A stretch of 10,891 bases of DNA from Escherichia coli. Lineage in GTDB: Bacteria > Pseudomonadota > Gammaproteobacteria > Enterobacterales > Enterobacteriaceae. The stretch is from assembly GCF_003334355.1 (NCBI RefSeq), contig NZ_QOWP01000055.1; one strand, written 5' to 3'. How positions within the stretch are numbered: the stretch's first letter is position 1; every line of letters begins with the position of its first letter. A model generated the notes under the pieces. It ran no database searches. It was not told the origin of the DNA and worked only from the letters and a program-made list of their open reading frames with translations. Positions 500 through 2,876 of this stretch are shown piece after piece. Position numbers and translations under genes: made by a program.

Positions 500-1801
500 T
501 TAAATCCGAAGTGATGTGACTCTTCCGGTCGGTTTGACAATAGGGAATTGCTTAACGATGAAATAGCCTCCGGCATCATTCGGGTGATCATTGCCAGATT
601 TTTTATCAGGCTCCCCCTTCTCATCCCAGACCTGTTGCTCCAGAGATTCGGCATATAACGGGCAACGCTTCACATTAACTTTATAGCGACGCTCACCATT
701 GGCATTGCAGAACATTGCATTCATTGAGTTAACGCGATCTTTTACTGGCGGGTTCGAGCTGTTCACCACAACGTTAAAACCAGCCTGCTTAAGCTGGGCT
801 ATATCCGTCGTACTTGCGTTACTTGATTTTCTGGAATCCCCGGAAGCATCTGGATAAATATAAATTTCCCTCACTTTCCGGTAATCATTCCCATCATACA
901 GCCAGAAGCGTTCTTTAATGATGCGGATCATATCCGGCGTATCGTAGGCATTGATGATTTCAGTTACCGCACATGGAAGCCCCAAACGCAGCACATGGAC
1001 GATTCCCGCCATCTTTCCAACGTTAAAATCCATCCCAATATAAATCGGCTCCCCTGGCTGCTCCACTTCTTCGCAATTATTCAGTTTCCGGTCAAACTGA
1101 TGGTAAACAGTACCACTTGTCAGGTTAGTAAACTGTCCTCGAAGATAGGCTTTAATCAGCTCTGGAGGGTATGATTCAAGAAGCGAAGGAATGTAATCTG
1201 CTGGCAGGTTCTTTTCATTATCGAAAGTAGATGCCTGCACCAGACCATACAGTGAGGCCAGCTCTGTTTTTTCACGCACGGCTTTAACAAACTGCTCGTA
1301 GACAAATTTGAATCCTTCCGGCGTGGTTGTAACGTCAATACCGTTGCGAAGTCCATCAATCTTATAACGCATACGTGCAATTATCTTGCGCCACGCCGTT
1401 CTGGCTTTTTCCTTCGGCAAAATGTCCAGTTCATCCACCAACGCATTACCAATTTTGAAACCGACGATCGTTTGTGGCTTCTCCATCGATCTGCAGATAG
1501 TGGTTCCCCGATACTGGCGTCCGTAATAAAAGTGAACCTCTTTATTTCCCTCATTAATTTTTACGTTCAATCCCCAGTCAGCAGCAACTTCTTCCACTGT
1601 AGGGTAAAAAATATCGCGAATTTGGGGATACGTTGGCGCAAAATATCCCTGATTTATACCTGGATGCTCCCAAATCCCCTTGCATATGCCGCCACACCCA
1701 ACCCATGTTTTGCCCGAGCCAAAACCAGCAATATAGGCTTTAAATTTATGGGGCATTGAAAGAAATCGCGCCTGAGGCACATTAAGCGTCGGAGAGATCA
1801 T
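500..1801 (-). CDS. Terminase large subunit (ATPase + nuclease)
   Basis: Walker A-like motif AGFGSGKT near the N-terminus, length about 433 aa, position directly after the small-terminase gene. Start placed at the ATG at 1801..1799 (MISPTLNV...), which has AAGGAG about 8 nt upstream; the listed ORF extends to a GTG at 1810. Confidence 0.88.
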   Translation of the reverse strand: MISPTLNVPQARFLSMPHKFKAYIAGFGSGKTWVGCGGICKGIWEHPGINQGYFAPTYPQIRDIFYPTVEEVAADWGLNVKINEGNKEVHFYYGRQYRGTTICRSMEKPQTIVGFKIGNALVDELDILPKEKARTAWRKIIARMRYKIDGLRNGIDVTTTPEGFKFVYEQFVKAVREKTELASLYGLVQASTFDNEKNLPADYIPSLLESYPPELIKAYLRGQFTNLTSGTVYHQFDRKLNNCEEVEQPGEPIYIGMDFNVGKMAGIVHVLRLGLPCAVTEIINAYDTPDMIRIIKERFWLYDGNDYRKVREIYIYPDASGDSRKSSNASTTDIAQLKQAGFNVVVNSSNPPVKDRVNSMNAMFCNANGERRYKVNVKRCPLYAESLEQQVWDEKGEPDKKSGNDHPNDAGGYFIVKQFPIVKPTGRVTSLRI

Positions 1802-2876
1802 CTTCATCACTCCTTACTCTGGCATCAACCACATTAATATTGATCGCCACAGGCTGGGGATGTTCATTATCTTCCACCGTTTCGATCTCTTTGCGCAGCT
1901 TCTGGTTTTCCATTCTGCGCCGTTCAATTTCCAGTTCCTGTAGCCGTTTATCTGCACATAAAGCCCCGCCAGCAGAAAACAAACGCAACAATTCACGCCG
2001 GGCGGCAGCCTTATCCTCCAGCAGGATCTCAACGCCGAATTTTCCGAATTTTGCCCCTGCATATAATTGCCGCGCATCCCCATCAAGCAGAGTGGTATCA
2101 GCCATATAAAGCTGTCCCGTTCCCTCACCGCAGCACTTCGGGCAGTCCGGATTGGGTATGGCGTTATCAACAAAGCCGAGGCCTCCATATTCCGGTTCGG
2201 GTTTGCCATCTCTGGAAGCCTGCGCCGCTGCCTTGTCGAATTCTGCTATATCGCGCCACTGGTAGAGATGATTCTCGCCCCAGCAATAACGGCAGTTAAC
2301 ACGGCGAAATTGTGCAAGCTGATTGGGGTCGGCCAGGACAATAGCCATCAACTGACTCACTAGTAAATCCAGGTCTGCGGTATAGCGTTTCTGGTACTGA
2401 TTGCGGAAGTAGCTGATAGCGCGAAAAACCCTGGCATTTCTAAGCATACGACTGGCGTTGCTGTTAGCTGTCGCACCTTGCCCCTCATAACCGGCTAGTC
2501 GGTACGCCTCTGTCGGCTTTTTACCCTGAGCAACAAGCATCGCAAACTTAGCCTGCTGGTCAGAAATGCCGAATTCATCGGGACAGAACGAAAATTCCTC
2601 CGCGTCGCCCTCATTCAGGCCCGCATCGAATACTGGCTTTTTTTCCTGAGATTTTTCGTTCCGCTTTTGTGCAGTCTGCGCAGATTTTTTCTGCGCACTT
2701 TTTTGCGCAGTTTTGCACATTTCTGTCTGCGCATTTTTCGGAGTTTTTTTGATGTAACGACGGGCTGTTGCGTAATTCAGTCCCCTTGCTTCACACCATG
2801 CCACCGGAGATATACCGGAGCGGGTGTATTCAGCAATATACTCCTGCTGCAACGCCCCCCAGTCCGGTCTGCTCAT
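1782..2876 (-). CDS. Terminase small subunit, unusually long (364 aa), with N-terminal HTH, Lys/Ala/Gln-rich linker, Terminase_2-like core, Cys cluster and coiled-coil/acidic tail
   Basis: Segment AYRLAGYEG...ANSNASRMLRNARV resembles the small-terminase (Terminase_2 / P27-type) signature as recalled; N-terminal HTH-like stretch GISPVAWCEARGLNYATARRYIKK; Cys pairs CRYC ... CPKCC suggest a zinc ribbon; gene directly precedes and overlaps the large-terminase start. Confidence 0.75.
   Translation of the reverse strand: MSRPDWGALQQEYIAEYTRSGISPVAWCEARGLNYATARRYIKKTPKNAQTEMCKTAQKSAQKKSAQTAQKRNEKSQEKKPVFDAGLNEGDAEEFSFCPDEFGISDQQAKFAMLVAQGKKPTEAYRLAGYEGQGATANSNASRMLRNARVFRAISYFRNQYQKRYTADLDLLVSQLMAIVLADPNQLAQFRRVNCRYCWGENHLYQWRDIAEFDKAAAQASRDGKPEPEYGGLGFVDNAIPNPDCPKCCGEGTGQLYMADTTLLDGDARQLYAGAKFGKFGVEILLEDKAAARRELLRLFSAGGALCADKRLQELEIERRRMENQKLRKEIETVEDNEHPQPVAININVVDARVRSDEDDLSDA
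2665..2735. repeat. Cluster of short imperfect tandem repeats built on the palindromic core CTGCGCAG, each followed by a T-run, inside the 5' part of the small-terminase gene
   Basis: Seen directly: gtgcag / tctgcgcag / ctgcgcac / gcgcag / tgcaca / ctgcgcat recur at roughly 9-15 bp spacing between about 2669 and 2734; they encode the KTAQKSAQKKSAQTAQK low-complexity stretch. Confidence 0.55.

Follow-up and report, generated by a model that had tools for sequence, protein, structure and literature searches.

The stretch of Escherichia coli DNA considered here, hereafter the window, comprises 10,891 nucleotides (nt) of contig NZ_QOWP01000055.1 (assembly GCF_003334355.1) and comes from the late-gene region of a lambdoid prophage of the Rac-like type. 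Among its genes is that of a small terminase (TerS) of 364 amino acids (aa). Six TGCGCA-like hexamers are clustered in the part of this gene that encodes a linker predicted to be disordered, and the array that they form is under selection as DNA. The hexamer motif goes with the class of the N-terminal domain encoded directly ahead of the array and not with the core of the protein, also across unrelated TerS families. The N-terminal domain and the array may together constitute a portable packaging-specificity cassette of ~210 base pairs (bp), grafted onto unrelated cores, with the linker peptide largely a by-product of the motif and with a cysteine module in the core as the first zinc site on record for a phage TerS ring; for these propositions taken jointly, the chances are judged to be even.

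The mechanism by which small terminases select viral DNA in pac-type packaging is, in the words of a 2022 review, "elusive and controversial" (PMC9611059). The DNA-binding domain of the model SF6 protein has no preference as to sequence when it binds pac DNA (PMC4737164). The TerS protein of the window is itself already annotated, and more than 80% of the window is present in 577 complete E. coli genomes. The sources searched contain no description of a zinc module inserted into the core throughout the family, of the mosaic of N-terminal cassette, core and tail or, above all, of the in-gene hexamer array paired with an N-terminal domain. A literature search for TGCGCA in connection with terminase and pac likewise found no report of such an array.

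The hexamer array as a target of selection

Four of the ten copies of TGCGCA in the window lie together in a 57-bp part of the TerS gene, at 2677, 2692, 2704 and 2728. Two degenerate copies, TGTGCA at 2714-2719 and TGCACA at 2668-2673 (gene strand), complete the array, and the hexamers are spaced ~9-15 bp. The degenerate TGTGCA accounts for Cys54 of the window protein (in EMCK), while most of the close relatives inspected have E(M/V)RK at this place, encoded through an exact TGCGCA in another frame. The array is found at the same gene position in homologues that have diverged to 41-54% identity, and its consensus among relatives is AAAAC-TGCGCA-RAA, with a spacing of mostly 9-16 bp.

When codons were resampled synonymously with the protein sequence held fixed, 0.29 copies of TGCGCA were expected in the window gene, against the four observed. 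In 29 of 29 loci (P<=4e-4), the count was four to eight copies, against an expectation of 0.2-1.1. The post-hoc choice of motif was corrected for by comparing the maximum count of any hexamer. With this correction, the linker region remained significant in the window (P=0.008) and in all 31 long-form genes (P<=0.015), and of 61 control regions taken from these genes, only one fell below 0.05. No hexamer enrichment was found at the equivalent position in Pseudomonas phage F116 and Burkholderia phage Bcep22 (P=0.35-0.45).

The reading frames in which the hexamers occur bear on the same point. Klebsiella phage ST974-OXA48phi18.2 (L003) carries six copies of TGCGCA distributed over three reading frames, so that the one hexamer encodes Ala-Gln, Leu-Arg and Cys-Ala within a single gene, and 25 of 113 TGCGCA sites lie outside the main frame, with 78% in the Ala-Gln frame. 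In the class of genes with the repeat GTGGAAACC, the motif is present in both orientations and encodes unrelated peptides, and the linker peptides of the repeat classes (TAQK, SANSQK and KVSTKK) are wholly unlike one another. The resampling, the use of three frames and the control regions show that selection acts on the DNA itself.

Pairing of motif and N-terminal domain

N-terminal domains with the sequence ...TARRYIKK accompany TGCGCA in four core clusters, 34-97% identical to the core of the window protein, and those with ...AKRYIK[I/V] accompany TGCGAA(T), often as the palindrome TGCGAATTCGCA. A single Arg-to-Lys change in the putative recognition helix would accompany the switch from TGCGCA to TGCGAA. 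Three N-terminal domain classes of the GW type have one motif each, namely GTGGAAACC, CCGACC and GGGGCA; GW-type classes are without TGCGCA and TGCGAA, and most have a repeated hexamer of their own. The N-terminal domain also occurs on unrelated TerS cores. On a Cys-less core in Aeromonas phage phiARM81mr, ARRYLK is found with seven TGCGCA, which are all the copies in that locus, and on a Cys-less core in Klebsiella phage RothC, AKRYIKV is found with six TGCGAA/TTCGCA. In the AKRYIK class (L002, L039, L042-L049 and L091; gene nt ~110-210), many of the sites combine into a perfect 12-bp palindrome, and 16 of 46 neighbour pairs have a spacing of 6. Two N-terminal domains may bind such a palindrome head to head, as these figures hint.

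Because the N-terminal domain is the only protein element that is constant whenever the motif is constant, it is by elimination the putative reader of the array. The array, for its part, would be a pac (packaging-initiation) site, since pac lies in or beside terS in P22, SPP1 and P1. The 22-bp pac site in gene 3 of P22, the SPP1 site with its direct repeats (boxA/B/C) and the P1 site are all cis signals in or at the start of terS, as proposed here. The pac site of P1, reportedly composed of seven TGATC(A/G) hexamers in pacA according to Sternberg and Coulby, additionally shares with the present array the form of clustered hexanucleotide repeats. Unlike these three, the array discussed here places four to nine hexamers in the DNA of a disordered linker directly behind the putative reader domain, and the pair moves between unrelated cores. 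In the proposed mechanism, the N-terminal domains of the TerS ring would bind the six-hexamer array as the pac site. The domain and its flexible, basic linker of ~55 residues (12 Lys or Arg among residues 41-80), together with the sites encoded in it, would travel as a single cassette.

Should this hold, the array would set the start of lateral and generalised transduction by a prophage that over a tenth of complete E. coli genomes carry, and the grafting of cassettes by recombination would retarget which DNA the phage packages. The predicted pairs of reader and site (ARRYIKK with TGCGCA, AKRYIK with TGCGAA, and others) are available in genetically tractable E. coli prophages, and specificity-swap experiments are therefore straightforward to design.

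Several points weigh against the N-terminal domain as the reader of a pac site. Two N-terminal domains, AKKYISV (L010) and AKAYISI (L050), are found without a clear array, the top hexamer reaching only three to four copies; these are either exceptions to the pairing or cases in which the sites are too degenerate for a count of exact hexamers. The DNA of the domain and the array lie within ~100 bp of each other, and linkage in mosaic exchange could explain their co-variation. The array could also serve a different purpose at the level of DNA. Finally, the designation of residues 1-44 as helix-turn-helix (HTH)-like draws on a predicted three-helix fold and a weak, sub-threshold match to the HTH of IS66 TnpA, and the domain alone gave no meaningful match to Pfam or to PDB sequences.

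These points lead to an alternative in which the array is a real cis element with another reader, such as the 83-aa protein encoded directly upstream of TerS, the SF6-like domain of TerS or a host factor, or in which it is regulatory, through TerS autoregulation or DNA bending. Physical linkage can account for the co-variation with the N-terminal domain, the A-rich flanks of the consensus could bend DNA, and other determinants of pac binding must exist, given that the SF6 domain binds without sequence preference (PMC4737164). However, the motif stays constant while cores, SF6-like domains and large terminase (TerL) types vary, the Cys-less Aeromonas and Klebsiella cores included, and phages of the same hosts have different motif classes, which speaks against a host reader. 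The 83-aa gene is absent from the array-bearing AKRY class and from Klebsiella cluster 1, and it is kept across motif classes. Since it is missing in whole array-bearing lineages, it is not the array reader, and the 83-aa protein was rejected on its distribution as a class-specific reader of hexamers. Another reader or a regulatory role is on this evidence unlikely.

It is also conceivable that the array is a by-product of low-complexity TAQK repeats that arose by replication slippage and is functionless as DNA. The predominance of the Ala-Gln frame would agree with such an origin, as would the copy number, which differs among near-identical prophages as slippage predicts. Between L015, L016 and L030 on the one hand and L012 on the other (gene nt ~140-210), the number of TGCGCA ranges from four to six and whole TAQK or SAQK units are absent, L015 and L016 being short of units; the array probably does expand and contract by slippage. 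The excess over resampled codons was, however, obtained with the peptide fixed and withstands the correction for motif choice with flat controls, the hexamer encodes three different dipeptides within one gene, and inverted copies encode unrelated peptides. Moreover, the motif persists at 34-45% core identity, where synonymous sites should be saturated. A functionless by-product is thus improbable.

Modules of the small terminase and its four-cysteine insertion

The match of TerS to phrog_51 ("terminase small subunit"; E=1.7e-75) spans the entire protein, that to Pfam Terminase_2 (PF03592) residues 122-321 (model positions 19-129, i-Evalue 3e-7), and PF03592 is precomputed for every TerS homologue listed. 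An NCBIfam model was found neither for TerS nor for the 83-aa protein. The ATG at 2876 is taken as the TerS start, since the resulting N-terminus, MSRPDWGALQ, agrees with that of homologues. On every feature tested, TerS is a member of the Terminase_2/G1P-like family: a G1P-type HTH domain is present, as is a core in which helices 148-181 and 289-336 make up a helical hairpin and strands 272-286 a beta-hairpin inserted in it, and to which an extra 85-residue module is added at the turn. The features of the protein and of the genes adjoining it are listed in Table 1. The layout is taken in part from an AlphaFold2 (AF2) prediction of the monomer, made with a 106-sequence alignment, for which the mean predicted local distance difference test (pLDDT) score was 85, exceeding 94 for residues 100-300.

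Table 1. Positions of the TerS modules, the hexamer array and the adjoining genes in the window
Feature	Window position	Strand	TerS residues	Basis
Small terminase (TerS) gene, 364 codons and stop	1782..2876	-		Open reading frame list, phrog_51, Pfam Terminase_2, NCBI/UniRef names
N-terminal HTH-like domain, GISPVAWCEARGLNYATARRYIKK	2745..2876	-	1-44	AF2, three helices
Three short helices			6-38 (6-20, 24-30, 35-38)	AF2, pLDDT 87-95
Disordered Lys/Gln/Ala-rich linker	2577..2744	-	45-100	AF2
Disordered stretch			~45-95	AF2; pLDDT <50 at residues 55-88
Six TGCGCA-like hexamers, candidate pac / TerS-binding array	2668..2733	.		Counts, synonymous resampling, homologue positions
SF6 G1P-like HTH DNA-binding domain	2436..2576	-	101-147	AF2 three-helix domain 106-146
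Core (oligomerisation) helix 1	2328..2435	-	148-183	AF2 helix 148-181; SF6 G1P alignment up to residue 103
Predicted four-Cys zinc-knuckle module, inserted in core	2073..2327	-	184-268	C195, C198, C245, C248
Strand, then CRYC			188-193	AF2
Helix, then Gly-rich loop, then CPKC			210-222 (helix)	AF2
Strand behind CPKC			253-258	AF2
Beta-hairpin and long helix 2 / coiled-coil-like stalk	1869..2072	-	272-286 (hairpin), 289-336 (helix)	AF2; SF6 G1P 117-153
Disordered acidic C-terminal tail, candidate TerL-docking peptide, PVAININVVDARVRSDEDDLSDA	1785..1868	-	337-364	
Large terminase (TerL) gene	500..1810	-		phrog_2 / phrog_10250; overlaps TerS 3' end by 20-29 nt
83-aa HTH protein, kin to DNA-binding part of P22-gp3-type TerS	2880..3131	-		phrog_309, Pmp13 TerS

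The origin of the extra length is apparent from the distribution of relatives. A search of 1.84 billion representative proteins returned 1,774 clusters (50% identity) at E<=1e-3 and 1,253 at E<=1e-10, and most of these relatives are ~250 aa long and cover query residues ~100-300. Among four-Cys relatives, 68 are without the first ~45 residues (median 252.5 aa), and 25 of 110 Zn-type relatives carry the N-terminal domain, with a median length of 342 aa. Judged by these alignments, the excess over the common ~250-aa Zn form is the N-terminal HTH-like domain plus the linker, ~100 residues in all. Within the common form, the family profile aligns to SF6 G1P (3ZQP; E=6e-17) in two pieces, positions 6-88 with SF6 22-103 and positions 183-219 with SF6 117-153. 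The ~95 profile positions between them, which include the Cys module, correspond to 14 SF6 residues located between core helix 1 and the beta-strand and helix 2. The Cys module is therefore an insertion into the core, placed where its helical hairpin turns.

The sequence-only reading had described a recognisable small terminase core, followed by a Cys cluster and a charged, coiled-coil-like C-terminus with an acidic tail. The TerS core is borne out, the Cys cluster is shaped like a pair of zinc knuckles with conserved CxxC motifs, and the C-terminus is a long helix in the AF2 prediction with an acidic tail behind it. The order was mistaken, the cluster being ~85 residues inserted inside the SF6-G1P-like core instead of after it, and the ~100 N-terminal residues had been missed. 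The Zn-type form of ~250 aa is a large family and no oddity.

Four separately exchanged modules are thus proposed for TerS: the N-terminal cassette, the SF6-G1P-like HTH, the ring-forming core, and the stalk with its tail. The HTH of residues 101-147 would supply general DNA affinity, as that of SF6 does, and the core that is presumed to assemble into a ring would be a helical hairpin bearing the four-Cys module at its turn, beside the beta-hairpin. As a whole, it is regarded as moderately probable that the 364-aa protein, built of these four modules in their proposed roles, works as the small terminase of a Rac-like prophage that is widespread in E. coli.

Compared with the G1P proteins of SF6 and SPP1 (Pfam Terminase_2; PDB 3ZQP/3ZQQ and 2CMP), which have 164 residues against 364 here, TerS has an additional N-terminal domain, a linker, a long C-terminal helix and a tail specific to the TerL type, besides the four-Cys module. 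Furthermore, whereas the SF6 domain shows no sequence preference for pac repeats, a separate domain co-varies with the repeat motif here. The TerS proteins of phages F116 and Bcep22 (~250-270 aa) share the same core and the invariant CRYC...CPxC module, but have neither the N-terminal domain nor the linker, and no hexamer array. The TerS proteins of Bacillus phages Sam46 and Sam112 are Terminase_2 members which, as here, have gained an N-terminal domain, in their case a sequence-reading winged helix (FtsK_gamma) that differs from the domain discussed here; neither a Zn module nor an in-gene repeat array is reported for them (PMC8190038).

The first knuckle of the module, CRYC (Cys195 and Cys198), is encoded at window positions 2283-2294, and the second, CPKCC (Cys245, Cys248 and Cys249), at 2130-2144. 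The 106-sequence alignment, which spans 25-52% identity, shows no variation at C195, C198, C245 and C248, and neither does a further alignment (A3). Of 130 diverse relatives with a length of 200 aa or more, 111 retain these four cysteines, and most of the other 19 are gapped at those columns. A pattern so conserved across the aligned sequences is not due to chance, and the remaining cysteines (C249, C28, C54, C98 and C307) are not conserved. The signature of the module is CR[YH]CxG...YQ...GGxG...PxCPxCxGxG...DT, and each knuckle is predicted at the end of a strand, with strand 188-193 ahead of CRYC and CPKC ahead of strand 253-258 (pLDDT 97-98). The second knuckle is of the DnaJ/anti-TRAP type, CxxCxGxG, at the level of motif only (PDB profile matches with E of 0.05-2). 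None of 36 module sequences belongs to a Pfam family at E<=0.001, and no solved structure resembling the module was found by PDB profile and fold searches. The assignment as a zinc finger is accordingly one of motif and conservation, and not of membership in a described family.

The module probably binds one structural zinc per subunit and would most likely enlarge the cap end of the ring structurally; a role in contacting DNA or TerL is possible. This predicted zinc module defines a large and structurally uncharacterised TerS architecture, which numbers over 1,200 clusters (50% identity). In the literature searched, zinc sites in the recognition subunits of terminases are reported for herpesviruses and not for phage TerS. 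The zinc fingers of herpesvirus pUL28 and pUL56, which lie in the DNA-recognition terminase subunit (PMC9611059), have neither sequence nor fold kinship with the four-Cys knuckles described here, and the likeness is one of analogy only.

HNH proteins assist some terminases, such as gp74 of HK97. A catalytic HNH-type (beta-beta-alpha-metal) nuclease that aids DNA cutting could be sought in the module, whose arrangement CxxC...H...GG...N...CxxC superficially resembles HNH motifs. This is very improbable, as the candidate histidine, H203, is His in 92 of 130 relatives and in others Phe (16), Tyr (6) or Asn (4), there is no His behind the second knuckle, the 27 residues from His to GG contain a helix, TerS has no HNH match in Pfam, and the 36 module sequences match neither HNH nor another Pfam family. 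An HNH endonuclease was rejected on the variability of H203, which Phe, Tyr or Asn replaces in a fifth of relatives.

Behind the core, ELEIERRRMENQKLRKEIE corresponds to residues 313-331 and lies within the predicted 48-residue helix (289-336), and the last 28 residues, ending in SDEDDLSDA, are predicted to be disordered. The ...KLRxEIE... helix is kept in most of the long-form homologues inspected, and the tail behind it changes with the TerL type. Thus, the PVAININVVDAR tail co-occurs with TerL proteins at least 78% identical to that of the window, even where the core is 34-58% identical or the N-terminal domain is of the GW type (L054). In L033, by comparison, where the core is 85% identical, the tail reads IIIHNSLPMPG and the TerL is unrelated. 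P22 TerS requires its C-terminal tail to associate with TerL (PMC9611059), and this requirement, together with the co-variation, supports the acidic tail as probably a TerL-docking peptide. The long helix and its disordered acidic tail would then recruit the cognate TerL, whose gene overlaps the TerS stop. TerL adjoins TerS and is co-oriented with it in all loci inspected. In phage record ON470595, the "terminase" gene is annotated with a 20-nt overlap, and the TerL start context in the window is GTGATGAAGATG.

The protein is, as the sequence-only reading had stated, about twice the usual size, at ~40 kDa by arithmetic from 364 aa against 15-21 kDa for structurally characterised small terminase protomers (PMC9611059). 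This doubling, and the existence of obvious chimeras among database entries, could point to an artefact, namely a frameshift or assembly merger of two genes or a recent accidental fusion, to which next to no probability is given: "terminase small subunit" proteins of 363-364 aa form NCBI and UniRef clusters that reach 1,423 member sequences, full-length homologues at 41-54% identity occur in Yersinia, Klebsiella and metagenomic viruses, the AF2 chain is coherent, and the insert interrupts the SF6-like core instead of trailing behind it. Such clusters of the same length mean that the open reading frame (ORF) is real and not merged. The chimeras in question, database entries P0006 (616 aa, named "tail fiber protein"), P0025 (565 aa, with a TAGT domain) and P0033, are 565-616 aa long. 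The joining of TerS with a tail-fibre or TAGT domain in them is probably a product of assembly or gene calling and not a real fusion.

The upstream 83-residue protein and neighbouring genes

The minus-strand genes of the window are, in order, those for lysis, trkG, a ParB-like protein, a glycosyltransferase, the 83-aa ORF, TerS, TerL and the start of a portal-like protein (DUF4055). The 83-aa ORF stops 4 nt ahead of the TerS ATG, and the separate HTH protein noticed there by the sequence-only reading proves to be a conserved, P22-gp3-like neighbour of TerS. DNA recognition may be split between the two proteins, as that reading suggested, though not by the 83-aa protein reading the array. The 83-aa protein matches positions 145-218 of the 319 in the phrog_309 profile ("terminase small subunit"; E=8e-23), and it shares 35% identity with residues ~10-81, in the N-terminal part, of a 129-aa TerS, that of Pasteurella phage Pmp13. 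The latter protein has a Pfam GP3_package match (4.9e-5) and is encoded directly upstream of TerL. The 83-aa protein itself has no Pfam match.

Relative to the gp3-type TerS of P22 (GP3_package; phrog_309), only the DNA-binding part, that is the HTH and the following helices, can be aligned to the 83-aa protein, which lacks the ~50-residue C-terminal part of the Pmp13 TerS. The full gp3 architecture, with HTH, oligomerisation core and tail directly upstream of TerL, is thus not present in the 83-aa protein, and its gene is separated from TerL by a complete TerS gene, unlike that of a gp3-type TerS, which adjoins TerL. In ~45 loci, across N-domain classes, cores and TerL types, a homologue with 55-100% identity stops a few nt short of the TerS start, and the gene is, judged from these relatives, a maintained accessory gene and not a decaying remnant. 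It begins within the glycosyltransferase gene and overlaps the last 65 nt of it (window 3067-3131). Some phage records give a 69-aa version, and the longer ORF is favoured because homologues align from residue 1.

Further upstream, window positions 3067-4783 (minus strand) encode a protein of 263 aa with a ParB/Srx-like nuclease domain and a glycosyltransferase of 317 aa that is related to TAGT/GREB1 (phrog_842, with Pfam TAGT in relatives). This pair stands directly upstream of the packaging genes and occupies a like position before an 85-aa gene and TerS in L009. In Pmp13, a ParB-like gene and an unnamed protein precede TerS, and in L008 a DAM-like/GNAT protein is found in their place. The arrangement suggests a DNA-modification module coupled to packaging upstream of TerS.

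The potassium transporter gene trkG (4921-6396, minus strand) is a moron with the lysis genes on one side and the ParB-like gene on the other, an arrangement known from the Rac prophage, and the prophage described here retains terminase genes beside its Rac-like trkG. An Rz-like spanin gene (6516-6980, minus strand) contains, nested in another frame at 6575-6760, an ORF for a Pro-rich, lipoprotein-like product of the Rz1 type, which is the usual embedded arrangement.

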